Origin: Elusimicrobiota bacterium
GTDB lineage: Bacteria; Elusimicrobiota; Elusimicrobia; UBA1565; JACRDR01
NCBI GenBank assembly: GCA_041694815.1
Contig: JBGFSC010000007.1
Location: 1-64,000 of the forward strand
Reading direction: 5' to 3'
DNA length: 64,000 nt
Positions 34,217 through 57,957 of the stretch are shown one piece after another; the stretch's first letter is position 1; each line of letters begins with the position of its first letter. The notes under the pieces were generated by a model. It was not told where the DNA came from. It ran no database searches and worked only from the letters and a program-made list of their open reading frames with translations. A program made the position numbers and the translations under genes.

Positions 34217-34221
34217 GACGA

Positions 34222-37025: not shown

Positions 37026-37037
37026 ATATCCGGACCG

Positions 37038-37066
37038 TTTATATCAGGCATTTCTTGTTTAAGCAA
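37038..37066 (-). promoter_or_regulatory. Candidate sigma70 promoter TTGCTT-17-TATAAA (extended TG) for 37025 and downstream genes
   Basis: AT-rich intergenic gap; -35 at 37061-37066, -10 at 37038-37043. Confidence 0.5.
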
Positions 37067-37087
37067 TACATTCTCAAAGAGAATTTT

Positions 37088-37933: not shown

Positions 37934-37940
37934 GGTCCTC

Positions 37941-39134: not shown

Positions 39135-39144
39135 GGAGGCCTAC

Positions 39145-39173
39145 AGTGTATCGGGGGTGCATCATGCTGTCAA
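39145..39173 (-). promoter_or_regulatory. Sigma70-type promoter TTGACA-17-TACACT at the head of the radical SAM array
   Basis: Consensus -35 at 39168-39173, -10 at 39145-39150, 10 nt upstream of ATG 39134. Confidence 0.7.
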
Positions 39174-39209
39174 GCAGAATACAATCGCGCCGCTGCGATG
39201 AATGCCGGG

Positions 39210-41812: not shown

Positions 41813-42545
41813 GATCTTGAACGAACTGCTGAACAATCTCCGCAGCCGGTCCGACGCCCTTTAATCTCCCCCCCGAAAGATAGACGCAACGATCGCAGGT
41901 CGACTTTACCTTGTCCATGTCGTGGCTCACCAGAATGATCGTTTTTCCATCGGCCTTGAGCCGTTCGAAAGCCTTCTGGCATTTCAACATGAATCGCATA
42001 TCCCCAACGGCCAGGGTCTCATCGACGAGGATGATGTCCGAATCCGAGTGGAGCGCCGTGGAGAAGAAGACCCGCGCCTGGAAGCCGCTGGAGAGCTCCA
42101 TGAATTCTGCGTAACGATACGGCTCAAGCTCGCCGAACTCGATAATCCGCTCCAGTCGGCGGTCCATCTCGCGCGAGGCGAGTCCCAGCAGCGCGCCGCA
42201 AAAACGAATGTTGTCTTCGACGCTTAGGGCCGCCAAGGAGGCGCTGCTAAGGCTCAAGATGGGCGTCCGCAGCTCGCCGCGGACCTCGACGCTGCCCGTG
42301 GTCGGCGCCATGATCTCGGCCAGGATCATCAGGAGAGTCGTCTTTCCGGAACCGTTCGGACCGATCACGCCCAGGCTCTCGCCGCGATAGACGTCGAAGG
42401 AGACGTCTCGAAGCGCCCAAAGCTCCTTTTGATTACGCATCACTCCGTTGCGGAGGCTTTTGAACAAGGTCTGCTCCGACCGCGAAGTGATATAAAAACG
42501 TTTGCCGACCGACGAGACCTTGACAACGGCTTCTTTCAAGGTCAT
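41793..42545 (-). CDS. wzt: Polysaccharide ABC exporter ATPase (Wzt/TagH-like), no C-terminal carbohydrate-binding domain
   Basis: WALRDVSF, GPNGSGKTT, LSSGFQAR, ILVDETLAVGD..F, LVSHD. Start at the ATGA overlap 42545. Confidence 0.9.
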   Translation of the reverse strand: MTLKEAVVKVSSVGKRFYITSRSEQTLFKSLRNGVMRNQKELWALRDVSFDVYRGESLGVIGPNGSGKTTLLMILAEIMAPTTGSVEVRGELRTPILSLSSASLAALSVEDNIRFCGALLGLASREMDRRLERIIEFGELEPYRYAEFMELSSGFQARVFFSTALHSDSDIILVDETLAVGDMRFMLKCQKAFERLKADGKTIILVSHDMDKVKSTCDRCVYLSGGRLKGVGPAAEIVQQFVQDHASKPI

Positions 42546-43315
42546 AGGTGGTCGACGATCGTGCCTTCCTGCGCCCGGAACCAGCGCAGGCCCGCGGCGC
42601 TCATCAAGACGCCTCCCAGGATGAGCCCGGTCACGATCCACGGCGGCGGCACTTGAGAACGCAATAGGCACGCCCGCATGCCGTCCATGATATGGACGAT
42701 CGGATTGAGCATCAGCCAGAACCGCTTGTTCTCGGCGATCAATTGCAGGGGATAGAAGACCGGTACCGCGAAGAAGCCAACCTGCATCACGATGGCCCAA
42801 ATGCGCTCCATGTCGCGGTATTTCAAGGCTAGGCGCGCCAAGAAGAACGACACGCCCGCGACCCACAAAAGCTCGATGACGATCAGCACCGGCAGATAGA
42901 CCCAAGTCCACGCGGCGCCGATGAAGAAAAGGAGAAAGCCGAGCAGGATCAGCAACTCCAACAGATGTGACCAAAGGATGACGGCGATCGCGGAGAGCAC
43001 GACGATTTCCTTGGGAAACTTAAAATTCTTAAGGATACCCCCTTTCGACTGCAGGCTGCGCAAGGCGTTGGAGGTCGCGTTCGCTACGAAGCCCCATTGC
43101 ACCAGCCCGATGATCAGATAGAAGGCGTAGTTAGGTACGTGTTGCCCCATCCACTTGGTAAACAATTGGTACATTACCGTAAATACCAGGGCGGGATTGA
43201 GCAGGGTCCAGAAGAATCCCAAAAGCGTACCCTGATCGCGCAGCTTGAACTCGCACCGAGTCATTTCCCAGAGTAAGTTGCCGTACGTCGACCCCTTGAA
43301 GTGCGCCGGAATCAT
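42542..43315 (-). CDS. wzm: Polysaccharide ABC exporter permease (Wzm/TagG-like)
   Basis: EFKLRDQGTLLGFFWTLLNP, YRD, PVFYP, LNP; six hydrophobic segments; adjacent to wzt. Confidence 0.9.
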   Translation of the reverse strand: MIPAHFKGSTYGNLLWEMTRCEFKLRDQGTLLGFFWTLLNPALVFTVMYQLFTKWMGQHVPNYAFYLIIGLVQWGFVANATSNALRSLQSKGGILKNFKFPKEIVVLSAIAVILWSHLLELLILLGFLLFFIGAAWTWVYLPVLIVIELLWVAGVSFFLARLALKYRDMERIWAIVMQVGFFAVPVFYPLQLIAENKRFWLMLNPIVHIMDGMRACLLRSQVPPPWIVTGLILGGVLMSAAGLRWFRAQEGTIVDHL

Positions 43316-43364: not shown

Positions 43365-46300
43365 GTGGCAGACGGGCATAAGTTAGACTTTTTCGCAAAA
43401 GTGCTTCTTCATAGAGTGGAAGGCACCTCGATGAGTTTCCTCCTCGAGGGCGGTGATCTGATCCTAGCGAAACCCGTGTCCGCCAAAAGCCTTCGTTTCG
43501 GGGATTTGGTCGTCGTCAAGGGGCGGCAAGGGCGTGAATTCCCTCGAAAGATCGTCCACCGCTACTTGGGGAAATTCCGCAAAAACGGGCGACTGTTCCT
43601 GATCACACGCGGCGACGCGCAGGTTTTCTTCGACGAGCCCGTCCCGCAAGAACGCCTGCTCGGCAAGGTCTTTATGGTGCGCCGGAGCCATGGGTGGATC
43701 TCCTTGGAAGCCTGGTGGTCCCGTGCGATCCACGTCCCCATCGGGGCTTATTCCTCATTGATCCACGCCGCCGCCGCGGTGGCCGCCGCCGTCTTCCGCG
43801 CCGCGGCGTTGTTCGCCTATCCGCGAGCGTCGGCGGCTGGTTCCGGGCCGCTTTCCTTACTTTTCTCGACGATCGATGCCTGGTTCCGAGGCGCCGAGCT
43901 CATTCTCCGCGGTATCCTCTCCATCCCAGCCGGCCTGCCGCTGCGCCTGCTCGGCGCCGCCGCGCTGCCGCGCCTGGCGCCTCCGGCGGGCCTGAGCGGC
44001 CGCCTCGAAAACGTAACCCTCCGCGGAACGGTTAAGATATCGGGCGATATCGTAATTCCGGCGGGTTCGACGGTCGTCGTCGAGCCCGGTACTCGGCTGA
44101 TCCATGAGGGAGGACTCGGCGTGCCGGAGATCCTGCGACCCACCAAGACCGGCTGGCGGCCCGCGACTCATCGATCCCATCGCAATTGGATCGTTTACGG
44201 CGCGCTGGACCTCCGAGGCGACCCGTCCAAGCCGGTCGAGCTCTCCGGCAAACGACCGGCCCATTTCCTGTTCCTGGGCCGGTCTCGAGGGAGGCTAGAG
44301 AGTATCCAATCCGCTCCAGGGGCTTCGGCATCCGTCAGTTGCTGGGATTGGTCGAAGGTCGTCGTCGCCGGCTCCGAACTTCGCTTGAGCGCCGCCGTCA
44401 GCGCGTTCGAATCGGCCCGACTCACGGTGCGGGACTCGAGTTTCTCCGGTCCTGATACGGCGTTGTGCGCCGATGACCGCGCGGCGCTATTGTTGCTCCG
44501 AACCTCGTTGAGAGGCTTCCATACCCCGCTCTCGATGAGCCTTCGTTCCCGGACGACTCTGACGGAATGCGTGATCTCCGGCGGCGCCTTCGGCCCGCTC
44601 GTCTCCGGCGCAGCCCGGATCGCGCTGCTTCGCTGCCGGCTGACGGCCGTCCAGGGGGCCCCGCTGCGCCTGCTACACCACTCGGAAACCCGCAGCCGAT
44701 CGACGATCTTCGAATCCTGCGGGGCGGGTGTGCAACTACGTGGACAGGCCGCCTGGCGATCGTCGAAGGACCGGCTTACCGGCTTCGATGGCGCAGCCGT
44801 CCAGGCGTCAGACAAGGCGCACTATTTCGCATACCAATCCCTGCTCGAGCAAAACGGCGTTGGACTCGTGGCGGATGGCGCCGCGACGATCGAGGCCGAA
44901 GGCTTGCGGATCTCGCGCTGCGATCAGGGAATTCGAATAGCCGAACTAGCGCACGCGACTCTTAAGGAGACCCGGATTTCCAACTGCGGACACGGCATCT
45001 TGCAGCTTGACCGCTCCACCGTCAAGGTCGCCCACGCCGCCTGCGATGATTGCGGAAGCGGGTGGTCCGCCGAGGGCAGCGCCTCGATCAGCGCCAAAGG
45101 GCTTTCGATATCGAGAGCAAAAGGCCATGGCATGTCGCTCAAGGGGAACGCGGCCTTCCGAGGCGACCTCACCGCGGAGTCCTGCGGGGAGGCGGGCCTC
45201 TTCCTGGCCGGCAACGCCGCTGCCGAGCTCGTCGACGGCCGCCTGGACGGCAACCGCACTGGTTTGCTGGCAATCTCGGGTCGCTCCATCCTCGCTTCAA
45301 CCTCCGCTTTTAACAACCACGAAGTGGGCTGCGATTTTCAAAACGGAGAACACGTCCAGAAGGCGGTCCGGATCGTCGGTTCGCCGATCGGGATAGGCGC
45401 CTACAAGCAGGCGCGGGTCAATCTGGAAGGATGCGAAATCACCGGTTGCGGCACCGGCGCGTTCTTGCAGGATGCCTCCAGCTTGGACGGCCGCGCGCTC
45501 TCATTGACAGGCTGCGGCATTGGCTGCATCGCGGAAGGCGCCGCGCGGTTCGAGGCGGCGGACCTCGAAATCTTCGGAGCCGGATCGCATGGGATTTGGC
45601 TCAAGGATAAGTCCGTCGTCACCGGCAATCTGACGATCGCCTCCTGCGGGGGCCCTGGAATATATCTCACAGGCGAGGAGGCTTCTCTTTTCTTGTCGAA
45701 AGGCATCTTACGGGAGAATCGAGCCGGCTTGATGGCCCTATCAGGCCATTCAAGGCTCTGCGCCGTTCTGCTCGAAAAAAATAGGGAGATCGGCATAAGC
45801 CTACAAGGCGGGCGACACGTGGGTAAGGAGCTTCACATAAATGATTCTCCGATAGGGCTTGGGACCTATCGGCAAGCGCGGACCGACCTTGAGGGATGCG
45901 AGATCGCCAACTGCGCCACCGGCTTCTTCCTGCAAGACGCCTCGATCATGAGCTCCAGCGGACTGTTGATCAAGAACTGCGAGGTCGGCTGCATCGCGGA
46001 AGGCGCCGCGCGGTTCGAGGCGAAACAGGCTGAAATACTCTGTAGCGTGTCGCATGGGATTTGGCTCAAGGATAATTCGCTCTTGACCGGCTTTCTCACG
46101 GTCCGGGATTCGGGAGGCCCGGGCCTCTACCTAACGGGTGACTCCCGGGCCGAACTCTCCGGCGGAGGCTTTTTTAACAACCGAACGGGCATGCTCGCCC
46201 TGGCGGGAAGCTCTAGATTGGCGAACATGGATTTCATCGGCAATCGCGAAATCGCCTTGAGCGTTCACGGAGGCAGGCATTCTCTGCAAAGCGGCTCCCT

Positions 46301-48671
46301 GAGGGATTCTCCATCGGGCTTGGAGACATATGGCGACGGCAGGCTGGAATTCGAACATTGCCGCGTTTCGCGATGCCGGCAGGGCGCGCATTTGCAGGAC
46401 CGGTCCATCCTAAGCACCCTCGAGAGCGCGATCGAAGACTGCGGCATCGGCTGCATTGCGGAAGCCAATTCCTCCATCGAGGCGAACGGCCTAGGCGTGA
46501 CGCGTTCCGCCTCCCATGGCGTTTGGCTGAAAGGATGCGCGCGCTTGGCCGGCATCCTCTCCGCCGCACGTTGCGGCGGTCCTGGCATCTACATCACCGA
46601 CGAAGCGCGCGCAGAGCTGTGCGGGGGCCGACTGCAAGAAAATCGCGCGGGACTGCTAGCAATGTCGGGGACTGCCGTATTGCGCGACGTCTCGCTGGAG
46701 GCGAACCTGGACATCGGCATCAGCCTTCAGGGCGGCCGCCATCGCTTGGAGGCCACGGTGTTGGGGGGGTCTCCGGCCGGCATCGGGATTTATGGCGAGA
46801 CCACCGCCGATCTTACCAATTGCCGCTTGGAGTTGTGCCAACAAGCCATCTCACTTTTCGACCGCGCCGTCATGACTGGACGTAAAATCGTCATCGCCGG
46901 CTGCAATATCGGCTGCGTCTTGGAAAATGAGGCTCGCTGCGAGGCAGAAAGACTGGAAATTTCCGGAGCCCGCCTGCACGGGTTTTGGCTCAAGGGGAAA
47001 TCGCTGCTAACCGGTTCCTTGATCGTCCGAGGTTGCGGCGGGCCGGGCGTTTACCTGACAGAGGAGGCGCGCGCCGAGCTCACCGGAGGCGAATTGACTG
47101 GCAACCGAGTGGGCTTACTGGCCCTCTCGGGAACCTCGCTTCTAAGGAAAGTGAACCTCATAGAAAATCGCGAGATCGCCTTTAGCGCGCAGACAGGCAC
47201 GCACCGCCTCCTAGAGAGTTTACTGAGAGACTCCCCTATCGGGGTGGGGGCGCACGGTCGGGGGCGGGTCGAGCTTGAGGGAACTTCGATCGGCGCCTGC
47301 CACCAAGGAGTGTTGTTGCAGGAGGAGGCCGCACTGAGCGCCAAGAGCGCCACTATAACGGATTGCGAGCTTACCTGCATCGCGGAAGGGAGTACCTCCA
47401 TCGACGCCGAGGGGCTGACCATTACACGCTCGGCTTCTCACGGCGTTTGGCTCAAGGAGCGGGCTTTTCTTTTAGGCCGGATCTCCGTCAGCAGCTGCGG
47501 CGGGCCGGGCGTTTACCTGACAGAGGAGGCGCGCGCCGAGCTCACCGGAGGCGAATTGACTGGCAACCGAGTGGGGCTGGCGGCGCTCTCCTCCGAGTCG
47601 GAGATCCAAGGCGTTGCGATCGTAGGAAACAGAGAGACTGGATGCGGAATAGAAGGCGGCAGCCATCGCCTAACTGGAGTCCGCATTGAAGGCTCGCCCA
47701 CGGCTCTGTCGGTCCATAACCAGGCGCGCGTCGAGCTCGTCGACTGTCGGTTTTCGTCAAGCCGCTACGGCGTGCTCGCGCGGGACAGGGCGTTTTTGAC
47801 GGCTCGCGGCGTCGAGAGCAACGCCTGCGAAGTCGGCTGGTTCCTCGAGGGCGCATCCTCGGTCGCCGCAAGAAGCGCGAAAGCTAGCGACTGTTCGCTC
47901 CACGGCATCTGGCTCACGGATTTCTCCTACTTAAGCGGGACGGCCGAGGTCTCATCCTGCGCAGGAACCGGAATTTATCTTGACAGCGATGCCGTACTGG
48001 AATTGACCGCCGGCCGCGTCCACGGCAATCGCGCGGGAATCGTGGCATTATCGGGAACATCCAAATTAGAGAATCTGGAAGTCTTTAACAACCGAAAGAT
48101 CGGCCTAAGCCTCCAAAACGGCTTCCACCGGCTAGTCTCGGTCTCCGTCCTAGGATCGTCGCTTGGCGTCGGCGTTTATGCGACAACGGAGGCGGAACTG
48201 CTCGATTGCCGCATCGCCGCTGCGGAGGTTGGCATCGCATGCATGGGACGCTCCCATACGCTCTTGGCGCGATGCGCCTTCACCGGGGGCCGGATCGGGC
48301 TCTGGCTGCAGGAGCACGCACACGCCAAGGCATTCCTGTGCAGATTCAGCGGACACGCACCTTACGGGGCACGGATCAGCCATCGTGCGCAGGGAATGAT
48401 CCACGCCAGTTCTTTCATCGATAACCGTGGAATCGCCTTGCTAGCGGAAGAAGGCGGCTGCGCGCGCGTGGACGCCAGCATATTCATCGGCAACCCGACC
48501 GGAATTAAGCTGGCCGACGACAGCCGCGCCTGGATCCGATCGAATCGCATCTTCGATGCGGCCGTCGATAGCGTCTGGTGTCTCCGCGGAAACGCGCGAA
48601 CCTTCACCGGTAACCGAGTGGAAAACTCGCGCCGGATTCATGAGCCGCTATTCTCGAGCTTGCGGAAATAA
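43365..48671 (+). CDS. S24/S26-like peptidase domain fused to a very long parallel beta-helix repeat region (1768 aa)
   Basis: N-terminal VEGTSM...GDLI...GDLVV...IVHR...TRGD...LGKV; hydrophobic linker; more than 1400 aa of 22-aa coils. Confidence 0.8.
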   Translation: MADGHKLDFFAKVLLHRVEGTSMSFLLEGGDLILAKPVSAKSLRFGDLVVVKGRQGREFPRKIVHRYLGKFRKNGRLFLITRGDAQVFFDEPVPQERLLGKVFMVRRSHGWISLEAWWSRAIHVPIGAYSSLIHAAAAVAAAVFRAAALFAYPRASAAGSGPLSLLFSTIDAWFRGAELILRGILSIPAGLPLRLLGAAALPRLAPPAGLSGRLENVTLRGTVKISGDIVIPAGSTVVVEPGTRLIHEGGLGVPEILRPTKTGWRPATHRSHRNWIVYGALDLRGDPSKPVELSGKRPAHFLFLGRSRGRLESIQSAPGASASVSCWDWSKVVVAGSELRLSAAVSAFESARLTVRDSSFSGPDTALCADDRAALLLLRTSLRGFHTPLSMSLRSRTTLTECVISGGAFGPLVSGAARIALLRCRLTAVQGAPLRLLHHSETRSRSTIFESCGAGVQLRGQAAWRSSKDRLTGFDGAAVQASDKAHYFAYQSLLEQNGVGLVADGAATIEAEGLRISRCDQGIRIAELAHATLKETRISNCGHGILQLDRSTVKVAHAACDDCGSGWSAEGSASISAKGLSISRAKGHGMSLKGNAAFRGDLTAESCGEAGLFLAGNAAAELVDGRLDGNRTGLLAISGRSILASTSAFNNHEVGCDFQNGEHVQKAVRIVGSPIGIGAYKQARVNLEGCEITGCGTGAFLQDASSLDGRALSLTGCGIGCIAEGAARFEAADLEIFGAGSHGIWLKDKSVVTGNLTIASCGGPGIYLTGEEASLFLSKGILRENRAGLMALSGHSRLCAVLLEKNREIGISLQGGRHVGKELHINDSPIGLGTYRQARTDLEGCEIANCATGFFLQDASIMSSSGLLIKNCEVGCIAEGAARFEAKQAEILCSVSHGIWLKDNSLLTGFLTVRDSGGPGLYLTGDSRAELSGGGFFNNRTGMLALAGSSRLANMDFIGNREIALSVHGGRHSLQSGSLRDSPSGLETYGDGRLEFEHCRVSRCRQGAHLQDRSILSTLESAIEDCGIGCIAEANSSIEANGLGVTRSASHGVWLKGCARLAGILSAARCGGPGIYITDEARAELCGGRLQENRAGLLAMSGTAVLRDVSLEANLDIGISLQGGRHRLEATVLGGSPAGIGIYGETTADLTNCRLELCQQAISLFDRAVMTGRKIVIAGCNIGCVLENEARCEAERLEISGARLHGFWLKGKSLLTGSLIVRGCGGPGVYLTEEARAELTGGELTGNRVGLLALSGTSLLRKVNLIENREIAFSAQTGTHRLLESLLRDSPIGVGAHGRGRVELEGTSIGACHQGVLLQEEAALSAKSATITDCELTCIAEGSTSIDAEGLTITRSASHGVWLKERAFLLGRISVSSCGGPGVYLTEEARAELTGGELTGNRVGLAALSSESEIQGVAIVGNRETGCGIEGGSHRLTGVRIEGSPTALSVHNQARVELVDCRFSSSRYGVLARDRAFLTARGVESNACEVGWFLEGASSVAARSAKASDCSLHGIWLTDFSYLSGTAEVSSCAGTGIYLDSDAVLELTAGRVHGNRAGIVALSGTSKLENLEVFNNRKIGLSLQNGFHRLVSVSVLGSSLGVGVYATTEAELLDCRIAAAEVGIACMGRSHTLLARCAFTGGRIGLWLQEHAHAKAFLCRFSGHAPYGARISHRAQGMIHASSFIDNRGIALLAEEGGCARVDASIFIGNPTGIKLADDSRAWIRSNRIFDAAVDSVWCLRGNARTFTGNRVENSRRIHEPLFSSLRK
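45126..48150 (+). repeat. About 7 tandem 462-nt (154-aa) super-repeats inside the giant ORF
   Basis: HG(M/I/V/F)(S/W)L motif codons start at 45126, 45588, 46053, 46515, 46977, 47439 and 47901; 47034-47113 is identical to 47496-47575. Confidence 0.85.
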
Positions 48672-48692
48672 TTATTGGTATCATCCACAATA

Positions 48693-49886
48693 ATGGCTAC
48701 GCCCTCAAACGCACTTCCGCTGAAGCACAATGTACGGACCATGATCCGTTTGGGCGCCGATCCCATTGGAACGCTGGAGCGCGCCTACGTCCAAGATGTA
48801 CTCGACGGCCAGCGTCTTTCTTACGGCCCCTTCGTGGGCCGCTTTGAACGGCTTTTCGCGGAGGTGCACGCCTGCCGGTTCGCCGTATTCTGCAATAGCG
48901 GAACCAGCGCGCTGGAGGCCTCGATCCAAGCGCTTCGGGAGCTACATGGATGGCGCGATGGCGACGAGGTCGTCCTTCCGGCAGTGACCTTCGCAGCGAC
49001 CTTGCATGCGGTACTTAACAATCGCCTGCAGCCCGCATTCGTGGATGTCGATCCGCAGACCTTCCACATCGACGCGGCGAGAATCGAAGCAGCGATCGGG
49101 ATGCGTACCCGCGCGATCGTCCCGGTGCATCTCGCGGGCCTACCCTGCGACATGGACCCGATCCTTGAGATCGCGCGACGCCGCGGTCTGCTCATCCTAG
49201 AGGACTCCTGCCAAACGATGTATGCCCGATACCACGACCGGCCCGTTGGCTCATTGGGAGATGTGGGCTGCTTCTCAATGAATGTCGCCCACCATATCGA
49301 TGCCGGCATCGGCGGGATCGCGACCTCCAACCGTCCGGAGCTGGCCGATCTGATCCGCAGCCTGGTCAATTACGGACGCGACTCGAGAGAACTCGCAACC
49401 AACTCGCGACGATCCCGAACGCGCGCCGCCTCCATAGCGCGGCCGGCTCATAATTTTAGGCCCTCGGAACTCGAGGCGGCGATCGCCCTTGCCCAATTAG
49501 AACGTCGGGACGATATCGTGGCCGGTCGGAGACGTTCCGCGGAAACATATGCCGTCGGCCTAGCAGACCTACAAGATCGGCTTCAATTGCCCTCGATTCC
49601 GCCTGATCGCGAACATGCCTTCATGTTCTTTCCTCTGGTACTCAAACAGGGATTGAAGCATCCTCTCTTAAGGTTTCTGCAATCCAAAGGCATCGAAACG
49701 CGTGAGCTAGTCCCTTTGTTAAATCAGCCGATCTGCAAACGCCTCTTTGGCAATCTCGCTAAAGAGTACCCAGTAGCGCGCCGGCTCAACGCCCAGGCCT
49801 TTTGCATCGGCTGCCACCAGGACCTTTTGCGGGAAGACCAGCTCTACGTAGTAGAGCAGCTTCACCTCTATTTTGCGGACCACTAA
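48693..49886 (+). CDS. DegT/DnrJ family PLP enzyme with His in place of the catalytic Lys (ColD/RfbH-like dehydratase)
   Basis: NSGTSAL, GDEV, VPVHLAG, EDSCQ, GCFSMNVAHH..GIGG. Start placed at ATG 48693, downstream of TGgTATCAT. Confidence 0.85.
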   Translation: MATPSNALPLKHNVRTMIRLGADPIGTLERAYVQDVLDGQRLSYGPFVGRFERLFAEVHACRFAVFCNSGTSALEASIQALRELHGWRDGDEVVLPAVTFAATLHAVLNNRLQPAFVDVDPQTFHIDAARIEAAIGMRTRAIVPVHLAGLPCDMDPILEIARRRGLLILEDSCQTMYARYHDRPVGSLGDVGCFSMNVAHHIDAGIGGIATSNRPELADLIRSLVNYGRDSRELATNSRRSRTRAASIARPAHNFRPSELEAAIALAQLERRDDIVAGRRRSAETYAVGLADLQDRLQLPSIPPDREHAFMFFPLVLKQGLKHPLLRFLQSKGIETRELVPLLNQPICKRLFGNLAKEYPVARRLNAQAFCIGCHQDLLREDQLYVVEQLHLYFADH

Positions 49887-49892
49887 CGCCTT

Positions 49893-50882
49893 ATGCGGAT
49901 GTTGATCCTGGGTGGCACCGGATTCCTAGGGAGGCACCTCGTTGAGGCCGCGTCGGCACGCGGTCACCGCATCGTCCTCTTCAACCGCGGAATCACCGCT
50001 CCAAGACTCTTTCCGGAACTCGAGACCTTACGCGGGGACCGCCGGGGACCGCTTTCGCCGCTCGAGCACCGAACGTGGGACGCAGTCGTCGATACCTGCG
50101 GGTATTACCCGTGGGAAGTGGACCGTTGCGTCCGCGCCCTTGCCGCCAAGGTTGGCCACTACCTATTCGTGTCCAGCATAGCGGTCTACGCTGATTTCGG
50201 GAAACATCGAATCACCGAGAACGAACCGACGATCGAGCCGGTGTCTGGAATCGGGGGGTTCTGCGGCGAAGTGACCTTAGACAATTACGGATCCTTGAAG
50301 TCGGAATGTGAACGATCACTGTCGAGCCTACTGCCAGAACGGGCCCTCACCATCCGTCCCGGGGTCATCGTGGGTCCCTGGGATCCCCTGGACCGGCTGG
50401 GTTACTGGGTCCGCAAAGCGCGGGAACCGGAGGGAGCCGCACCGGGCAGGCCGGAACGCGCCATCCAACTCATCGATGTCCGCGATCTCGCGCTATGGAT
50501 GGTCCGGATGCTCGAAGCAGGTCAGACCGGAGTTTTCAACGCGTCGGGCCCCGGGGAACCCCTCACCATGAACCGCATCCTTGAGGCCTGCGCCCGGCGG
50601 CACGCGCAGCGCACTCGGTGGACATGGGTTGCTGATTCCATTTTGGTTGCCAACGGGATCAGACGCCTGCCGCTGTGGATGCCTGAAGACAAGAACAACG
50701 CCGGTTTTTTTAACGTAGATTCGAGCAAGGCCGTCCAAGAAGGCCTTGCCTTTCGCCCTTTCGCGGAAACCGTCGATGCCGTCGCCCGTTGGGCGGAGGG
50801 GTGCCAGGTACCGACGCCTTTCGGCTTGACGCCAGACCAAGAACGGAGCCTCATCGCGACCACGGCTCGCAATGTCGGCTAA
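49893..50882 (+). CDS. NAD-dependent epimerase/dehydratase (atypical SDR, isoflavone-reductase-like)
   Basis: LILGGTGFLG, FNRG, WDAVVDTCGY, YGSLK, RPGVIVGP. Confidence 0.88.
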   Translation: MRMLILGGTGFLGRHLVEAASARGHRIVLFNRGITAPRLFPELETLRGDRRGPLSPLEHRTWDAVVDTCGYYPWEVDRCVRALAAKVGHYLFVSSIAVYADFGKHRITENEPTIEPVSGIGGFCGEVTLDNYGSLKSECERSLSSLLPERALTIRPGVIVGPWDPLDRLGYWVRKAREPEGAAPGRPERAIQLIDVRDLALWMVRMLEAGQTGVFNASGPGEPLTMNRILEACARRHAQRTRWTWVADSILVANGIRRLPLWMPEDKNNAGFFNVDSSKAVQEGLAFRPFAETVDAVARWAEGCQVPTPFGLTPDQERSLIATTARNVG

Positions 50883-50908: not shown

Positions 50909-50937
50909 TTGACAGGATAAATTCAGTCTATTAGCAT
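50909..50937 (+). promoter_or_regulatory. Sigma70-type promoter TTGACA-17-TAGCAT with an upstream A-tract, driving the precursor peptide
   Basis: -35 at 50909-50914, -10 at 50932-50937, A-run at 50899-50905. Confidence 0.72.
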
Positions 50938-50947
50938 ATGGTGTCCC

Positions 50948-51058
50948 ATGAAAAAGCCGCGTAATAAGGGCAAGAACAAGAAGAGGAAGTGGACCCCGCC
51001 GACCCTGACTCGACACGATCAAATCTACTCCTCTCCCGTCGCGGCGTATCCTAGCTAA
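50948..51058 (+). CDS. Putative RiPP precursor peptide, 36 aa (MKKPRNKGKNKKRKWTPPTLTRHDQIYSSPVAAYPS)
   Basis: Translated by hand (below the ORF-track cutoff). Basic N-terminus plus W-x-x-P-x-L leader motif; lies between a promoter and a PqqD/RRE gene. Confidence 0.8.
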   Translation: MKKPRNKGKNKKRKWTPPTLTRHDQIYSSPVAAYPS

Positions 51059-51072
51059 CAGCCCGACAGCTC

Positions 51073-51357
51073 ATGCCGCCGAAGGATTTCAAGAATAAAT
51101 CCATCCGTCGCAATCCACGCGTGGCATGGAGGATGGTCGGGGAAGAAGCGGTGCTCGTTCACCTGGAAAGGAATTTCTATTTTACCCTCGATGCAGTGGG
51201 CTCCCGGATTTGGCAGAATCTTGACTCCGAAACCTCCTGGGATGGTCTGGCCGCCTGGGCGAAAAAAGAATACGATGGGCCTGAAAAAGCCATCGAATCT
51301 GATTTGAGCCGTTTCATTGATCAAATGGCCAAGGAAAACATCATTCTTGTCGGCTGA
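51073..51357 (+). CDS. PqqD-family RiPP recognition element (stand-alone RRE)
   Basis: 94 aa; VAWRMVGEEAVLV...YFTLDAVGSRIW..LD...EYD...DL..FI..M....II. Confidence 0.92.
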   Translation: MPPKDFKNKSIRRNPRVAWRMVGEEAVLVHLERNFYFTLDAVGSRIWQNLDSETSWDGLAAWAKKEYDGPEKAIESDLSRFIDQMAKENIILVG

Positions 51358-52546
51358 AACGTTGGTCAATCCGCCGACCGTCAGCATCGTGATTCCCTGC
51401 TGGCGGCAATCGGCGAGCCTGTGGCCCAGCCTTAATGCCTGCCTGAAACAAGACTACCCCGCGTTGCGCGAGATCATCGTCGTTCATCGCGACTTCACAA
51501 GCGAAGAAAAGGCGCGGCTGGCCGATTGGCCGGTGGTGTCCCAAGAGGTCCGTAGGCCCGGCCCTGCGGCCGCCCGAAATCTCGGCGTCCGAGCCGCACA
51601 CGGCGAATATATCGCCTTCATCGACAGCGATTGCGTGCCGGAACGCCCTTGGTTGAAGCGGCTCATCCAATCCCTCAACCATCCCTCCATCGTCGGTGCA
51701 GGAGGCAGGGTGCGCTCGGCCGTTCCCAGAACTCCCACACAACATTATTTGAATCGAATGCAGGACGCCGGAGTCTTCTTGAATCAAGAATATTCATTCT
51801 ATGACGAGTTCCCTTTGCCGTTTCTTACCACACAGAATTGCCTCTACTTGCGCCGGGCGCTTCTTGCGGCCGGCCTGCTCGATGAAACCCTCCATTCTGG
51901 AGACGACCAAGACCTGCCGTGGCGGTTGATTTTGGAAGGCTGGCAAATCCGCTATGTGCCGGATGCCGTCGTCTATCATGAGCACCCCCGCAATCTTCGT
52001 AGTCTTCTGCGCCAGCACTTCCGGGCCGGACGAGCGGCGACGGATTTGATGGTCAAGTACGCGGACTTCCCGTTTCATCTCGCCGGAACCTGTCATCGCT
52101 TCTCCGCATACGCCTGGTATCTCCGCAAGGTGTGGTCCGGCTTTGCTCACGATTCCAGGCGCGACAAGGTCTTGACGACATTAAGAGTAACCGCAACCAT
52201 GGCGGGCCGCCTCTATCAGCGCTTGCGCCGGCTCCTGTGGGAACAGTTGCCGCGCCTGCCCCTTCCTGCGGAGGATTACGCATGGGTCCTTCATCGCGGC
52301 GGCAAGATTGTGTTGCAGGGGCTCAGGCGCTCCGAACGGATAGAGCTCAACGAATCCGCCTCCTTTATCTGGCTGGAGCACCTCAGGGGCGCTGATGACA
52401 GGACCGTCGCGCACCGCGTCGCGCAAGAGTTCGATGTCGGGACCGACGCAGCCGAGCAGGCGGTGTCGTCCTTGTTGAGTACGGTGCGCCGATTAAAAGT
52501 GAGAACACCCAAGCGGTCTGGAGAGCCGGCATGCCTCATCCAGTAA
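51317..52546 (+). CDS. GT2 glycosyltransferase with C-terminal PqqD/RRE domain
   Basis: VSIVIP, GPAAARNLG, AFIDSD, GDDQDL..R; C-terminal IELNESASFIW...VAQEFDV...AEQAVSSLL. Exact start uncertain. Confidence 0.88.
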   Translation: MIKWPRKTSFLSAETLVNPPTVSIVIPCWRQSASLWPSLNACLKQDYPALREIIVVHRDFTSEEKARLADWPVVSQEVRRPGPAAARNLGVRAAHGEYIAFIDSDCVPERPWLKRLIQSLNHPSIVGAGGRVRSAVPRTPTQHYLNRMQDAGVFLNQEYSFYDEFPLPFLTTQNCLYLRRALLAAGLLDETLHSGDDQDLPWRLILEGWQIRYVPDAVVYHEHPRNLRSLLRQHFRAGRAATDLMVKYADFPFHLAGTCHRFSAYAWYLRKVWSGFAHDSRRDKVLTTLRVTATMAGRLYQRLRRLLWEQLPRLPLPAEDYAWVLHRGGKIVLQGLRRSERIELNESASFIWLEHLRGADDRTVAHRVAQEFDVGTDAAEQAVSSLLSTVRRLKVRTPKRSGEPACLIQ

Positions 52547-53865
52547 GGCTCGAAAATTCGGCTGTGCTGCGACGCCACCTTCTGCGCCTGGGAGAAGGCG
52601 ACCCAAAAGTCGCCGCCCAAGCGCTTCGCTCCCTGAAAGCCGACCCCGCCATCGCCTGGGAACGTTTTTCCCACACGCCTTCTGAACGACGCGCCACCGA
52701 ACGAAGGCTAGGGGCAGGCTTTCCGGTGACCGTCCGTCGGCTCCTTGAGGACGCCACCCGAGGGTCCGCGGCCCTCCTTTACGACTTGGCGTCCTTGCAC
52801 GGCATACGCCCATGGATCGAACGGGGTATTGAGCGGACGCTCGGGAAGGCGGCACGCGAACGGTTCCGCGCCATCTGCTTCGCTTCCGATCACGCGGCCT
52901 ATCCGTATCAGCTGACTGTTTATCTGACGCATCAATGCAACAGCCGCTGTTCTTATTGCTTCGCGCTGGAAGACATGAAGAACGACCGCAGCTACATCTC
53001 GATGGAAAATTTCCAAAAGATTCTCGATTGGGCAAGGGGCCAGCCTATCTCCTGCCTGAACTTGCTAGGAGGCGAGCCGACCGTGCACCCTCGCTTTTCG
53101 GACTTCATGCGCATGGCCGGACGGCAAAAGCTTCTCGTATACTTCTCGACAAACAACCTATATCCGGAACGAGTGCTGCGGGCCATAGAGTCAGCGCGGG
53201 TCTTCAACATCCAGGTACACGCCATGGAACCGGAACAGTATCATCCCCAGCAGTGGAAAACCTTCCAACGCAATTTGGGGGCCATCTCGACGCGCGGCAT
53301 CCAGGTTTGGCTGCGCTACAATCTATACAGCCTTGATCAAGAGAAGAGATGGCACTTCTTGTTCGAGCTCTGCGAGCGATATCGACTACCCCGGATTAAC
53401 TTTGCCCTGACGTTTCCGGTGGGTGGAGGCGTCAACCGGCATGTCGCCCTCGCCGATTTTAGCCGTTTCGCAAAAATGACGGTGCGCTTCTTGAAGGAGT
53501 GCTCGAGTCGCGATATCGAGCCGGTGATCACAAAGTCCTTCCCTATCTGCTATTTTGAGCCGGAAGACCAAGCCTTCGTCATGGAGCGATGCCGCTTCCA
53601 GAATATCTGTACGGTCCAGCGCGCCGATTACACGTACAACATCATCGTCCGCCCCGATCTCAGCCTCGATCCATGCATAGCACTGAAATGGAAGCAAGGG
53701 AATCTGCTGGACTTTCGCGACCTGACGGCATTGGGTACGTTATTCAGGGATCGGATAGACTCCCTCCAAAAGGCGCCGTTGTTCGACGAATGCGAAACAT
53801 GCCCCATTTATCCACTCAACGTCTGCCAGGGCACGTGTCTCGCCTATAAGGACCTACCCGCCTAA
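52531..53865 (+). CDS. Radical SAM protein with full SPASM domain (candidate peptide maturase)
   Basis: CNSRCSYC, GGEP, C...PC...CETC......CQGTC; ~125-aa N-terminal extension. Confidence 0.9.
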   Translation: MPHPVRLENSAVLRRHLLRLGEGDPKVAAQALRSLKADPAIAWERFSHTPSERRATERRLGAGFPVTVRRLLEDATRGSAALLYDLASLHGIRPWIERGIERTLGKAARERFRAICFASDHAAYPYQLTVYLTHQCNSRCSYCFALEDMKNDRSYISMENFQKILDWARGQPISCLNLLGGEPTVHPRFSDFMRMAGRQKLLVYFSTNNLYPERVLRAIESARVFNIQVHAMEPEQYHPQQWKTFQRNLGAISTRGIQVWLRYNLYSLDQEKRWHFLFELCERYRLPRINFALTFPVGGGVNRHVALADFSRFAKMTVRFLKECSSRDIEPVITKSFPICYFEPEDQAFVMERCRFQNICTVQRADYTYNIIVRPDLSLDPCIALKWKQGNLLDFRDLTALGTLFRDRIDSLQKAPLFDECETCPIYPLNVCQGTCLAYKDLPA

Positions 53866-55419
53866 TCAGGCCACCCTGGTCCGCGCCCCATGCTTTGATC
53901 TTTCGAATAGTTCCAACAATCGAATCAACTCTTGGTCCTGCTCCAACCAATGCGGATGCTCAGCCGAACGATCAGTGATCGTGGGCCGCGGTTCGAATGA
54001 GTATCCTCTTGCGCTCAAAAAAGAGAAAAATTCCTCGTAAATGTCGATAGGCTTGCAATCAACCCTAACCCTAAGACCATCCAATCGTTTCCTCACGCCA
54101 GTGGGGTGGCCGTATAAATACTGCACATACATGCCGAACTTTTTGGCTAGTCCTAACTCCTCCTCGCTCCAACTGGCCGTCCGAATCACCTCGTAGGGCG
54201 GCTTGGGATCATGCTCAATCCCGTACTTTCCCGGAGAGATCGCGAATTCAGACCCAGGCACCACGACAAAAGGATGAATGACCAGGGCATCGGGCTCCAG
54301 GCGCAGCGCATAATCGATGGACTCCCTGAAGCCTTCATAATGATCGCCTGGCAAACCGCAAATGAGCTCCAATATCGCCCGTCCACTCAACGTGCTCCGA
54401 AATCTCCTGAACCGTTCCGCGTATCTCTCCTTATGCAGGACCCTGCCAGAAGCCTCAAGAGCTCCCGCATACACCGTCTGAAGGCCGGCGACGTATACAT
54501 TGGAAGAGAAACAAGAGTCCCGTAGCAATTCCAGCAGCTCCTCATCGAGGTGTTCGGGATTCATGGAGAATGCAATTCCCACCGGGGCCATGCCCGACTC
54601 CTCTCTTGCTCCATTTTCTTCTATGAGGATACGCAACAGCCCTTTCGCGTGAGCCGGGGGCAGCAGGATATCCGCATCGCAGAACGTGACGATTTGGAGT
54701 TGGGGCAACCGAAAAAATATTCCAAAATCCTCCCGCACTTGGTCCAAGCTCCGCAGGCGCAGCCTACGCCCAATCCCGCTGACGTCCCAAGAACAATATC
54801 GGCACACGAATGGACAACCTCGGGACGCCTCATAACGCATTTGGCCCGCCGCAGCAAACCCTCGCAGCTCTTCTCGAAACATGCTCCAACTGAAGCGCAT
54901 TTGCTCCAGATCGGCAACGGGCGGGCGAGGAATGTTCATCACAACCTCGCCATTCGCACGCCAGGCGATTCCCTGCACGGAATGCAACGGCATCCCCTGC
55001 TCGAGGGTTCGAAGCAGGTCGACAAGAGTTATCTCCCCTTCGCCTATGCAGACGAAATCCAAGGCGGGATGACGCCGGAGGATATCGGTCGGTGTGGTCG
55101 TCACTTCCGGACCTCCAACGATGATCCGAACCTCTGGACGCAGCTCCTTGATGGCTTGGCAGAGCGAAAATACCCTCGAAGAATTCCATGCGTAGACCGA
55201 AAAGCCTATAAGATTTGGCTCCTGCGAGAGGATCCATTCGATGATCAATGAATCCTCATCGGTGGAATAAAATCCCTTATAACTGATCTCCTTCTGATCA
55301 AAGCCCGCGCGCTGGACAGCATACCCGACCAGATGCAGTATGGACAGCGGTAGAGGAAAACCTACGTCGTTTCCAACTAGGTTAGATTTGGGTGAAATGC
55401 CGACTAGGCAGGCGCGCAT
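53866..55419 (-). CDS. Cobalamin-binding radical SAM protein
   Basis: IGFSVYAWN, IVGGPE, GEGE, EASRGCPFVCRYC, GLQT, GLPGD. Confidence 0.92.
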   Translation of the reverse strand: MRACLVGISPKSNLVGNDVGFPLPLSILHLVGYAVQRAGFDQKEISYKGFYSTDEDSLIIEWILSQEPNLIGFSVYAWNSSRVFSLCQAIKELRPEVRIIVGGPEVTTTPTDILRRHPALDFVCIGEGEITLVDLLRTLEQGMPLHSVQGIAWRANGEVVMNIPRPPVADLEQMRFSWSMFREELRGFAAAGQMRYEASRGCPFVCRYCSWDVSGIGRRLRLRSLDQVREDFGIFFRLPQLQIVTFCDADILLPPAHAKGLLRILIEENGAREESGMAPVGIAFSMNPEHLDEELLELLRDSCFSSNVYVAGLQTVYAGALEASGRVLHKERYAERFRRFRSTLSGRAILELICGLPGDHYEGFRESIDYALRLEPDALVIHPFVVVPGSEFAISPGKYGIEHDPKPPYEVIRTASWSEEELGLAKKFGMYVQYLYGHPTGVRKRLDGLRVRVDCKPIDIYEEFFSFLSARGYSFEPRPTITDRSAEHPHWLEQDQELIRLLELFERSKHGARTRVA

Positions 55420-55421
55420 GG

Positions 55422-56372
55422 TTAATCGCGTATACGCCTAGCGAATAAGCAGCGCTGCCCTGCGTAGTAAGGGACAACCGCCTGGGATAATCCACCAAGT
55501 CTTACGGCAAGCCCGGCCAAGGCCCCAAACATCGCCGAGATGGATTTCGCGCGGATCGCAAGGTAACCCAGAGGCAAGTATTGGACGTGTCGTTTGACGG
55601 CGAAAACTTCGAAACCTCGTCGCGCAATGAGCGCAGTCAAGGTTTGAGGAGTAAAGTAAAACAGATGCGCTGAGAGAAGAAACCACCACCGTCGGCCAAA
55701 CAGTTTGGCCAACGGGTCCGAAATGTCGGGCCAATTCACAACTAGGAGACCCCCAGGTTTCAACAACCTTGCCGCCTCTTTTACAGCGGAAGCCGGATCC
55801 GAAAGGTGTTCCAGGACGTCCCAAAACGTCACCAAGTCGAAATAAGCGTCCGACCAAGGGGCTGCCTGCAACGTCGCCGCTTCGATGGATACGCCGGTCC
55901 GTTCGCGGGCAAACCGCCGCAACCAAGCGTTCGGCTCGACGCCGCTCGCCTTCCAGCCGTGCTCTTCCGCAATCCTCATAAAAAAGCCGGCCGCCGCGCC
56001 GACATCGAGTGCCCTCCCGGTTGAGGGCAGGTGCGGTTGCATGCTTCTCCAGTATCCGCGAAAGGTCCTCATCCGGCTTGCCATCTGCTCAACGTAGCGA
56101 GCGTCCTCACCTTCCGAATACGCATCAAGAACGGCTCTCGGATGGGGCTGAGGATTAAGATAAACCAGATCGCAGCGGCGACACCGCACTAGGCGTTCGC
56201 TCCCAAGACGGTCGCTAGTAGCCGTAAAGTTAGAATCAGAATTCCCCGAGACCCGAGGCGACGTTTCAAAGACGAACACGGCATCATCGGCGCCGCATAG
56301 ATTGCACGCGACGTGGACGCGATCGGCGCCAGGCCGATTGCTGGCAAATGATTCAACCCGTGCGCAGCTCAT
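55422..56372 (-). CDS. Class I SAM-dependent methyltransferase with N-terminal Zn-ribbon
   Basis: CNLC...CRRC, LDVGAAAG, GVEP, FDLVTFWDVLEH, LKPGG. Confidence 0.9.
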   Translation of the reverse strand: MSCARVESFASNRPGADRVHVACNLCGADDAVFVFETSPRVSGNSDSNFTATSDRLGSERLVRCRRCDLVYLNPQPHPRAVLDAYSEGEDARYVEQMASRMRTFRGYWRSMQPHLPSTGRALDVGAAAGFFMRIAEEHGWKASGVEPNAWLRRFARERTGVSIEAATLQAAPWSDAYFDLVTFWDVLEHLSDPASAVKEAARLLKPGGLLVVNWPDISDPLAKLFGRRWWFLLSAHLFYFTPQTLTALIARRGFEVFAVKRHVQYLPLGYLAIRAKSISAMFGALAGLAVRLGGLSQAVVPYYAGQRCLFARRIRD

Positions 56373-57957
56373 CGATGGGATTCGAATAAAAGAGCCTTGG
56401 GAAGAAAACCCTGGCAGCCGTCGACGCCTTCCACCCTAGGGAACCGTCCCGGAAGCTATTGCGAAACTGCCTAGCAAGGTACCTCGGCCGGGAATAGAAT
56501 TCCCAATAAAAGCGGTTATACCAGCTTTTGAGCACTTGCGGCGTCAGCTCAGGATTAGGATGCGTATAGACGTCGGCGGCACGGTGGACGTTGTAGAGGT
56601 CCCAACGCTCCGGCTTTTTTATCAGGCCCTTACGCTCATACTCCGCGAAGAGCGGCGTGTCCGGAAAGGGCATGCAAACGGTAACTTTTGCGTAATCAGG
56701 CATCAGACGCTTCGCGAATTCAAAAGTGGCGCGCATCGACCGGAATGTCTCCCCTGGCGTGCCGATCATAAAGAAACCGACCACCTCGATGCCGACCGCG
56801 CGAAACATTTCCATAGCCTCGATACTTTGCTCGACATCAAGGTCCTTTTTTATGGAGTCCAGCGCGCCCTGATCGCCGGACTCAAAACCGCACGCAACCT
56901 GATACAAGCCTGCGCGCTTAAAATGCTCCAGGAACCGACGTGAACAACGGTCGGCACGGATGCCGGCGGCAAGATTAAAGTCAAACTTGAGGCCGGCCGC
57001 AAGGACTTTTTCGGCAATTTCCTCCGCGCGTTTAACGCTTGCCAAAAACTGATCATCGACAATGCGCACTTCCTTGATGCCGAAGGCTTTATAATGTACG
57101 AGTTCCGCCAACACGCGATCGGCGCTAAAAACACGGTACTGATCGTACGATGCCGAGCAGAAACTACACTCGGAGGGGCAGCCCCTGCTGGTCTCCAACT
57201 GAATCAGTGGGTGGCTGCGAGCGATCAGGCGCGGATTGCGGTAGCGCCAGAATTCATAGAGCTCCAGATCCTGGAATGGAAGCGCATCAAGCTCATCGCG
57301 GCGCATTTTAGGCCGTGGCGGCGTGAATTCGATCTCAGGCTCGTCCGAAAGGACCGCATCCTTTTGAACGGCATAAGCGCCCTCACCGTTGGCAAGGCGT
57401 GTAATAATCCCATCGACGTCGATCATCATCCGCCGCCGATCATCCTTCCGGTAAGCGATCCCTTTGATCTCGGCTCGTGCCTTCTGCTGGCAGATTTCAC
57501 CGAACGTTTTTTCTCCTTCTCCGATAACGACCACATCGCACATCGAATCGACCAGGCTTTCCACGGGCAGACGCCGGTTGAGGCCACCCGAAGCATGCAC
57601 TCCTCCGTGGATCACGATCGACTCGGGTCCCAACACCCACTTGGCAATGATACCCGCCAACTTGGCCTCATAATAGACCGGTGTCGTAACGGTTAGGCAG
57701 ACGAATTTCGGCTTTTCCTCAATGAGAAATCGGACCAGCCCCTTCCAAGCCATGGCTTGGCGGTTATCACGTATGCCCATATCGAAGATCGCAGTCTTAA
57801 ATCCAGGGATCAGCCTTTTGACGTACGCTGATAGCCAAAGAAAGGCTCCAACCATCTGCACCTGCGTGGCAACGTCAATCTTCGTTCCCGTATAAGCGGT
57901 GAACATGCTGGGTTGCACGATGAATGCCGCCTTCGCTTCGTCTAGCTTAGGGTGCAT
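56353..57957 (-). CDS. Cobalamin-binding radical SAM protein
   Basis: GGVHAS, GEGE, TSRGCPSECSFC, GFESG, GTPGET, PFPDT. Confidence 0.92.
   Translation of the reverse strand: MHPKLDEAKAAFIVQPSMFTAYTGTKIDVATQVQMVGAFLWLSAYVKRLIPGFKTAIFDMGIRDNRQAMAWKGLVRFLIEEKPKFVCLTVTTPVYYEAKLAGIIAKWVLGPESIVIHGGVHASGGLNRRLPVESLVDSMCDVVVIGEGEKTFGEICQQKARAEIKGIAYRKDDRRRMMIDVDGIITRLANGEGAYAVQKDAVLSDEPEIEFTPPRPKMRRDELDALPFQDLELYEFWRYRNPRLIARSHPLIQLETSRGCPSECSFCSASYDQYRVFSADRVLAELVHYKAFGIKEVRIVDDQFLASVKRAEEIAEKVLAAGLKFDFNLAAGIRADRCSRRFLEHFKRAGLYQVACGFESGDQGALDSIKKDLDVEQSIEAMEMFRAVGIEVVGFFMIGTPGETFRSMRATFEFAKRLMPDYAKVTVCMPFPDTPLFAEYERKGLIKKPERWDLYNVHRAADVYTHPNPELTPQVLKSWYNRFYWEFYSRPRYLARQFRNSFRDGSLGWKASTAARVFFPRLFYSNPIDELRTG

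Follow-up and report, generated by a model that had tools for sequence, protein, structure and literature searches.

Genes at 50909..53865

We analysed a window of 64,000 nt from an Elusimicrobiota bacterium (GenBank assembly GCA_041694815.1, contig JBGFSC010000007.1, positions 1 to 64,000 of the forward strand), in which a first-pass annotation made from the sequence alone had proposed that an overlooked open reading frame (ORF) of 36 codons heads an operon for a ribosomally made peptide that is modified after translation (RiPP). The ORF (50948..51058, + strand) has an ATG start and would encode a precursor or scaffold peptide of 36 amino acids. Fourteen nucleotides past its stop codon begins the gene for a stand-alone PqqD-family RiPP recognition element (RRE) of 94 amino acids (51073..51357, +), which is overlapped by a gene for a family 2 glycosyltransferase (GT2) fused to a C-terminal RRE (51317..52546, +). 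The GT2 gene is in turn overlapped by 16 nt by the gene for a radical S-adenosylmethionine (SAM) enzyme (52531..53865, +), whose N-terminal domain is helical and whose C-terminal part is SPASM-like, with seven cysteines. All four genes lie where the first-pass annotation had placed them and are packed as tightly as it had described.

The peptide has a Lys- and Arg-rich N-terminus, a motif made up of Trp15, Pro18, Leu20, Arg22 and His23, and a C-terminal core of 13-16 residues that holds Tyr27, Ser28, Ser29, Tyr34 and Ser36; the core contains no Cys, there is no Glu past the motif, and the C-terminus is Tyr-Pro-Ser. The codon log-odds score of the ORF was +5.2 in frame and between -4.2 and -24.2 in the other five frames, and its GC content at third codon positions was 0.72, compared with 0.76 for genes. 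Judged alone, the 36-codon ORF is within the range of chance and makes a weak case; its family membership and its position raise it above chance. As the window peptide had been included in the first profile of the peptide family described below, the profile was rebuilt from 31 related peptides of other genomes with the window peptide omitted, and run against the genome of the window, divided into 67,666 six-frame segments. The ORF ranked first among these segments (E 0.12, 14.1 bits), the runner-up having an E of 1.8. Two PF05402 (PqqD-family) domains in this genome score above cut-off, both in the genes directly after the peptide ORF, and the hit counts because the top match of the genome adjoins its only two such domains. 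On these comparisons we take 50948..51058 to be a real gene. Searches by tblastn of its own genome and of a first set of loci found no paralogue of the peptide.

A promoter-like site, TTGACA-17-TAGCAT (50909..50937, +), agrees with the consensus at 10 of 12 positions and ends 10 nt before the ATG. Similar hexamers, judged by eye, end 7-8 nt before the ATG of the peptide genes of two relatives (G214 and G424). Because promoter-like hexamers end 7-10 nt before the start codon in the window and in these two genomes, the sequence suggests that the window peptide is read from a leaderless or nearly leaderless transcript.

The PqqD-family protein matched PF05402 with E 2.3e-15 and 57.1 bits (cut-off 23.4); its best NCBIfam model was lasso_PqqD_Bac (NF033536), at 40.4 bits below the cut-off of 80. 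The nearest solved relative of the PqqD-family profile was TbiB1 (E 1e-25), followed by 9x90 and 9x8z (two PqqD-family chaperone entries), TfuB1 and PqqD. The first-pass annotation had suggested predicting complexes of the peptide with an RRE. When this was done from custom-made alignments of 60 rows for PqqD and 10 rows for the peptide, the complex model scored 0.64 and the best of three controls 0.01, passing a mark attained by 116 of 157 solved complexes and by two of 215 mismatched pairs. Three runs agreed on at least 95% of contacts, with a partner pLDDT of at least 59, and the predicted interface lies between peptide residues 12-25, the motif, and PqqD residues 34-46 and 63-90. The motif region of the peptide is thus predicted to dock on the PqqD protein.

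In the GT2 fusion, whose start is possibly at 51347 (compare the 399-amino-acid database entry P0008), PF05402 matches residues 333-392 with 27.7 bits, against the same cut-off of 23.4. The structural model (mean pLDDT 76.0) has a confident GT-A fold at residues 22-247 and three strands and three helices at 321-392, so that the modelled C-terminal unit shows the topology of an RRE. A DSD motif at D103/D105 is invariant across 18 sequences. The fold matches were GT2 enzymes, with no glycocin transferase among the 50 ranks listed, and the best NCBIfam model was MftF (TIGR03965), with E 2.8e-43 and 148.4 bits under a cut-off of 280. Two full-length relatives were found in a phylum sample of 400 other genomes (G268 and G151), and both fusions directly adjoin peptides of the family to which the window peptide belongs.

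The radical SAM enzyme carries CX3CX2C and then the cysteines C340, C360, C382, C421, C424, C432 and C436, all invariant in 8 sequences, with the C-terminal block reading CX2CX7CX3C. The best fold matches of its model (mean pLDDT 73.5) were SuiB, BlsE, SkfB, PqqE and anSME. SuiB, the enzyme of streptide Lys-Trp cross-linking (PDB 5v1q/5v1s), gave a fold E of 1e-11 with a TM-score of about 0.5, and also topped the sequence search of the PDB (E 2e-5), with about 15% identity. SuiB has an N-terminal RRE of its own, whereas residues 1-123 of the window enzyme are all-helical in the model; the enzyme therefore has no RRE of its own, the RRE being a separate protein here. Among NCBIfam models it matched MftC (TIGR03962; E 1.6e-10, 40.7 bits, cut-off 265) and PqqE (TIGR02109; 30.1 bits, cut-off 381).

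No full-length match to this enzyme was found in the phylum sample and no full-length relative in JGI metagenomes. The sole full-length relative in named genomes (30% identity) lies on an Acidobacteriota metagenome-assembled contig (L022, 1-6316), where its gene context is different: judged from the translations, it follows a 440-amino-acid protein and genes of an MsbA-like ATP-binding cassette (ABC) transporter, and the contig stops short of any visible precursor. The nearest relatives in named genomes are from Bacteroidales, at 24-28% identity over residues 114-442. Of nine Bacteroidales loci scanned with a family profile in which the window peptide was included, seven hold, some 1.4 kb upstream, a short ORF that is rich in Tyr and carries this leader motif too (E <= 0.24); one of these peptides (L023) sits beside an HprK-like kinase and three further radical SAM genes. 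In another genome (G269) the distance between a family peptide and a relative of the enzyme is 1.3 kb. Because its relatives adjoin Tyr-rich peptides, and because of its fold matches, the window enzyme probably acts on the peptide core, most plausibly on Tyr. The Bacteroidales loci (L023-L031; for example L023, 3076-9952) are themselves operons of 3-4 radical SAM genes with an HprK-like kinase and a Tyr-rich peptide of roughly 40 amino acids, which has a Y-x-K-P leader motif and matched no NCBIfam family.

Related peptides in other genomes

A scan of whole loci, aimed at short ORFs whose N-terminus is basic and which hold an aromatic-x-x-P-x-hydrophobic motif, brought out a family that sits in the PqqD and GT2-RRE loci of relatives. 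The peptides are 32-51 residues long and Lys-rich at the N-terminus; they carry the motif (Y/W)xxPxLx(K/R)H, and the short core at their C-terminus ends in Tyr in many of them. The motif and its spacing are common to the window peptide and 31 relatives; Trp takes the place of Tyr in the window peptide and in three relatives. A profile of 10 members, the window peptide included, found matches in 41 out of 100 further genomes from the order (E <= 0.05) and in 42 of the 400 genomes of the phylum sample (E <= 1e-3), the latter mostly from the window's order.

The family is tied to PqqD. Stand-alone PqqD homologues occur in 50 of the 100 genomes of the order, and PqqD is also present in 40 of the 41 genomes with a peptide match. 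A PqqD match lies within 10 kb on the same contig for 27 of 51 peptide matches, and for 15 of the 16 best. The 24 matches away from PqqD are mostly weak, or on other contigs of fragmented assemblies, and some of them may be false. In 15 genomes with the main subfamily, the last 11 codons give identical residues except for V/I in 2 genomes, and 8 of these 11 codons differ at the third base; such invariant residues with third-base variation indicate that the family is translated and under purifying selection. An SD-like (Shine-Dalgarno-like) tetramer at -15..-7 precedes 14 of 20 relatives. No curated NCBIfam model reached its cut-off for the nine family peptides tested, four of which gave a weak sub-threshold match to the leader part of a lasso model. 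By sequence, the window peptide is best placed as a divergent member of this lineage-wide family. A literature search, in which searching by peptide letters had no part, found no paper on the family.

The commonest gene order in relatives is PqqD, B12-type radical SAM enzyme, DegT, peptide, family 4 glycosyltransferase (GT4), TPR protein and GT2. The B12 radical SAM enzyme in this cassette scores best against the NCBIfam model for AprD4, a sugar diol-dehydratase (E 6.7e-60; 203 bits, cut-off 500), and the literature search found no paper joining 'AprD4' with 'PqqD'. Canonical examples of the cassette were seen in L237 (9686-12509), L240 (4764-7600), L249 (8994-11743) and L239 (3586-6402), and the last ten residues of its peptide are nearly invariant over three families of the order. 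Other arrangements occur where the GT2 fusion is found: in G151 the genes for GT2-RRE, peptide and PqqD precede four B12 radical SAM genes, among which a GT2 gene is interspersed, and G268 has two GT2-RRE genes and a GT2 gene before the peptide. In G400 the order is PqqD, peptide, GT4, ABC-2 permease and beta-helix protein; a SPASM enzyme is encoded 2.4 kb off.

Interpretation and competing explanations

We favour, with moderate confidence, the reading that 50948-51058 is a translated gene whose product, a small precursor (or scaffold) peptide, enters a modification pathway that depends on RREs. The hidden RRE-recognised precursor proposed by the first-pass annotation is thereby supported by a PqqD-tied family, by the top rank in the leave-out search, by the complex model, and by the poor fit to lasso, PQQ and mycofactocin systems set out below. 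The reality of the gene, the conservation of the family and its link with PqqD rest on computation, as does the predicted docking; every chemical step, their order and the final product are our inference. The leader motif (Y/W)xxPxLx(K/R)H (Trp15-His23) would dock as a strand on PqqD and then on the RRE fused to GT2. PqqD would hand the peptide to the RRE-less radical SAM enzyme, which would modify the short C-terminal core, most likely by cross-linking or oxidation of Tyr27 or Tyr34. The GT2-RRE protein would add a sugar to the core while holding the leader with its own RRE, the sugar being probably of the amino or deoxy type and supplied by the DegT and epimerase proteins encoded just upstream. 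Later tailoring and export would fall to B12 radical SAM enzymes, a methyltransferase, a GT4, the beta-helix protein and an ABC exporter. Both glycosylation and radical modification of the peptide are thus proposed; the enzymes look competent for them by their Cys motifs, fold matches, DSD motif and RRE topology. In kind this would be RRE-guided peptide modification, which is known, by a pathway that appears undescribed.

Several observations weigh against this reading. The codon score of the ORF falls at the 18th percentile of real 36-codon gene windows and is reached by 18% of 6,822 small ORFs, and the leave-out E of 0.12 is by itself marginal. The promoter read by the first-pass annotation is present, but promoter-like sites number 2 per 4 kb against 1.4 +/- 1.1 in shuffled sequence, so the count is not significant, and no SD-like tetramer lies at -15..-7 of the ORF. 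The conserved short ORF that the first-pass annotation had expected upstream of homologous RRE genes did not appear when 29 PqqD homologues were scanned over their upstream 400 nt only; the scan of whole loci did recover the family, whose genes mostly lie elsewhere in the locus. No close orthologue was found of the window peptide, of its core or of the three-gene arrangement, and among 5.8 billion proteins the radical SAM enzyme has 6 other relatives, 3 of them with the N-terminal domain. SPASM names a seven-cysteine C-terminal domain for auxiliary clusters; as applied to this enzyme by the first-pass annotation, the label rests on the seven invariant Cys and on SPASM/twitch fold matches, but PF13186 (SPASM) gave no match at E <= 0.01. 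The pass of the complex prediction, made with custom alignments, may mirror the solved RRE-leader complexes of TbiB1 and TfuB1: since the nearest solved relatives are leader-bound lasso RREs, it speaks for likeness to those complexes and not for binding by this copy. Finally, the neighbours are mostly of glycan type (GT4, DegT, Wzt-like ABC), and for this reason the enzymes might act on sugar and not on the peptide.

This last point leads to the alternative that survives best, to which we give a minor but appreciable probability. Here the peptide is real and bound by RREs, and serves mainly as a handle for a sugar-derived product or a glycan chain that DegT, epimerase, GT2/GT4, and AprD4-like and B12 radical SAM enzymes build; the radical SAM enzymes work on the sugar part, not on amino acids, and the product is cut off or exported by the ABC transporter. 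The cassette of the relatives, in which PqqD and peptide accompany an AprD4-modelled B12 radical SAM enzyme, DegT and GT4, speaks for such a pathway, as do the Wzt/TagH-like ABC genes, the ABC-2 genes and the numerous glycosyltransferases of the loci. A main-subfamily core nearly invariant over three families is also more readily expected of a handle or cofactor than of an antibiotic. The radical SAM enzyme at 52531..53865, however, is not AprD4-like: its folds match peptide-modifying SPASM enzymes and its relatives adjoin Tyr-rich peptides. No precedent for a peptide-primed glycan turned up in the literature search.

Much less probable is a redox cofactor like pyrroloquinoline quinone (PQQ) or mycofactocin, in which a Tyr core would be processed by the radical SAM enzyme and PqqD, freed by a peptidase and decorated by GT2 as by MftF. 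Peptide, PqqD-type protein, radical SAM enzyme and GT2 make up the MftA/B/C/F set, and the window genes parallel it, with MftF as best model of GT2 and MftC among the matches of the radical SAM enzyme; many family cores also end in Tyr and the core is kept across genera. In both cofactor systems, as in the window, a small peptide comes with a chaperone of PqqD type and a radical SAM enzyme of SPASM or, in the window, SPASM-like type. Yet the scores are far under the cut-offs, for the MftF, MftC and PqqE models given above as for PqqD (TIGR03859; 21.5 bits, cut-off 46), and no MftD-/MftE- or PqqB/C-like Pfam families occur among the window ORFs. The defining residues are missing as well: the MftA precursor ends Val-Tyr and the PqqA core holds Glu and Tyr, whereas the window peptide ends Tyr-Pro-Ser and offers, past the motif, no Glu from which a Glu-Tyr link of the PqqA type could be made. 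The window GT carries an RRE of its own, and because of this fusion it would act on a leader-bearing peptide, which argues against a freed cofactor. Assignment to mycofactocin or to PQQ was therefore rejected, as the first-pass annotation had done. Glycocins, in which a GT2 peptide glycosyltransferase acts on a Cys-containing, disulfide-stapled core, were likewise rejected: the window has a GT2 but its core has no Cys.

That 50948-51058 is a chance ORF in the untranslated 5' region of the PqqD operon, with the RREs serving some other ligand, we consider very unlikely. Open stretches of 36 codons are not rare, and the codon score, the missing SD-like site and the leave-out E would all sit comfortably with it. 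Chance would nonetheless have had to place the top one of 67,666 segments right beside the only PqqD genes of the genome, with the motif and spacing of 31 relatives, a predicted interface that falls on the motif, and a promoter geometry that recurs in G214 and G424.

A lasso peptide precursor, whose layout is leader, ring and tail, can be dismissed, in agreement with the first-pass annotation: leader motif and PqqD are of the lasso B1 type (lasso_PqqD_Bac as best model, TbiB1 as nearest solved relative, and profile likeness, leader motif and predicted binding mode shared with the pairs TbiB1/TbiA and TfuB1/TfuA; PDB 5v1u/5v1v, 6jx3), but the B1 model stays below cut-off, the B2 transglutaminase-like protease PF13471 has 0 matches in the genome (97.8% complete), strong PF00733 (cyclase, asparagine-synthase homologue) matches, above 200 bits, lie on other contigs only (C40, C38 and C42) and none within the window, and the 16 residues after Leu20 are too few for the remainder of a leader, a ring and a tail.

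Returning to the reading of a leader-guided precursor, the closest published system is that of the linear polyphosphorylated peptides (LPP) of Bacillota, with the precursor LppA, the RRE LppB and the signal-peptidase-like leader peptidase LppS (Popov et al. 2026, PMC13381572). In both, the RRE is discrete and of lasso type, and its partner is a linear peptide, not a lasso. The published leader motif [Y/W]xxPx[L/V/I/F/A] agrees with the motif claimed by the first-pass annotation; the basic run that it had included is, on the portion of the source available, a trait of the present family and not of the published motif (PMC13381572). The LPP and window motifs agree in starting Y/W-x-x-P and, counted from the aromatic residue, in a hydrophobic position at +5 and a His at +8; what follows the His in the LPP motif YxxPxVLxHQxIxFETxxS is missing from the window peptide. 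The LPP clusters described there, like the window's kin, lie inside glycosyltransferase-rich polysaccharide/capsule loci. Their conserved set is given as a SpI-like peptidase, an RRE standing as a discrete protein, a kinase resembling HprK, a nucleoside triphosphate (NTP) transferase and a transporter resembling MsbA (PMC13381572). LPP-type partners stand beside relatives of the window radical SAM enzyme, namely the HprK-like kinase in L023 and, by translations, the MsbA-like ABC protein in L022. Among the window ORFs there is no HprK-like kinase, NTP_transf_5-type transferase or MsbA-like transporter, and of the LPP set as published in that text the RRE alone is present; a possible parallel to the signal peptidase has as its sole hint a sub-threshold Peptidase_S24 match described below. 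LPP further differs in belonging to another phylum, the core enzymes of the window being a radical SAM enzyme and a GT2-RRE fusion.

Fusions of an RRE to a glycosyltransferase have already been noted in silico (PMC7470986, PMC12710340). The RRE-Finder fusions, like that of the window, join a PF00535 glycosyltransferase to an RRE and are marked there as absent from known RiPP classes; unlike here, the accessible parts of these papers give no precursor family or product for them, and overlap with the present family is possible. If the favoured reading holds, the window peptide would offer a concrete candidate precursor for fusions that these genome-mining papers, as far as available, list without a substrate. 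An unannotated 111-nt ORF would become a testable substrate for three enzymes, and lasso/LPP-type leader recognition would be linked to radical SAM and sugar chemistry within glycan loci. The peptide family itself occurs in roughly two of every five genomes sampled from one bacterial order.

The surrounding gene cluster

Upstream of the peptide lie, on the + strand, a right-handed beta-helix protein of 1768 amino acids (43365..48671; Beta_helix, E 3e-85), a DegT-family sugar aminotransferase (48675..49886; PF01041, E 1e-87) and an NAD-dependent epimerase/dehydratase-like protein (49893..50882; PF01370, N-terminal part only, E 7e-10), which presumably acts on a sugar nucleotide. The DegT protein is 32% identical to the cassette DegT of relatives (E 3e-41). 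The N-terminus of the beta-helix protein has a weak Peptidase_S24 match (E 0.026, below cut-off), and homologues of this protein adjoin the peptide in G268 and G400.

Downstream, a convergent unit on the - strand (53866..57957) comprises a B12-binding radical SAM enzyme (53866-55419), a methyltransferase (55422-56372) and a second B12-binding radical SAM enzyme (56353-57957); from their position we infer that they belong to the pathway. The + strand radical SAM gene and the first of the - strand B12 radical SAM genes abut at 53865/53866 with zero intergenic bases, which leaves no space for terminators.

A further block on the - strand (35373..42974) encodes a B12 radical SAM enzyme, a beta-helix protein, a SPASM radical SAM enzyme, a GT4, a 452-amino-acid protein and a Wzt/TagH-like ABC ATPase. 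Orthologues of these genes flank peptide and RRE genes in G268, G400 and G151. Genes of 35373-48671 are 66%, 52% and 45% identical to G268 genes that lie within 7 kb of its peptide, the SPASM enzyme of the block is 47% identical to that of G400, and its B12 enzyme is 36% identical to that of G151 (E 2e-102). Because genes of 35373-48671 have counterparts beside the peptide elsewhere, the functional unit extends well beyond 50909-53865, and 35373-42974 is probably part of the system. The operon that the first-pass annotation had drawn at 50909-53865 thus holds the genes it listed but is too small, the larger system taking in DegT, the epimerase, the beta-helix protein, the B12 radical SAM enzymes and probably 35373-42974.

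An array of radical SAM, B12 radical SAM and metallo-beta-lactamase-fold genes (5388..35427, -) possibly belongs to the same cluster; what links it is contiguity and paralogy with 35373-37025. The window contains 27 Radical_SAM ORFs at E <= 1e-4 (24 of 41 and 3 of 10 ORFs scanned) and one more that is weak. From 5388 to 39134 (-) runs an unbroken array with 24 Radical_SAM ORFs, of which seven have a B12-binding domain and six SPASM, interspersed with two metallo-beta-lactamase-fold and two beta-helix genes. The B12 enzymes of the array scored best against RiPP C-methyltransferase models, below cut-off.

It is conceivable, though doubtful, that the whole stretch of about 5.4-58 kb, with its 27 radical SAM ORFs, several glycosyltransferases, sugar-tailoring enzymes, beta-helix proteins and Wzt-like exporter, builds, tailors and exports one heavily modified glycopeptide or peptide-primed glycan, steered by RREs and with the peptide as anchor. 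If true, this would be a mode of glycoconjugate assembly so far undescribed and widespread in this order, and should the large radical SAM array serve the same product, few known pathways for peptides or glycopeptides would equal it in number of enzymes. For Elusimicrobia, a preprint (10.1101/765248) reports that nitrogenase paralogues lie in neighbourhoods rich in radical SAM genes; by its accessible text it concerns a different system.

Three groups of genes near the ends of the window complete the picture. A PMT_2 (ArnT-like) membrane glycosyltransferase (58007-59539) lies opposite to a - strand group (59545-63560) of a GT2, a CofD-like 2-phospho-L-lactate-transferase homologue, a MobA-like nucleotidyltransferase and an AlgX-like SGNH protein. 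At the other end, two paralogous O-methyltransferase (Methyltransf_3) genes, each for about 370 amino acids, occupy opposite strands at 2357-4598.

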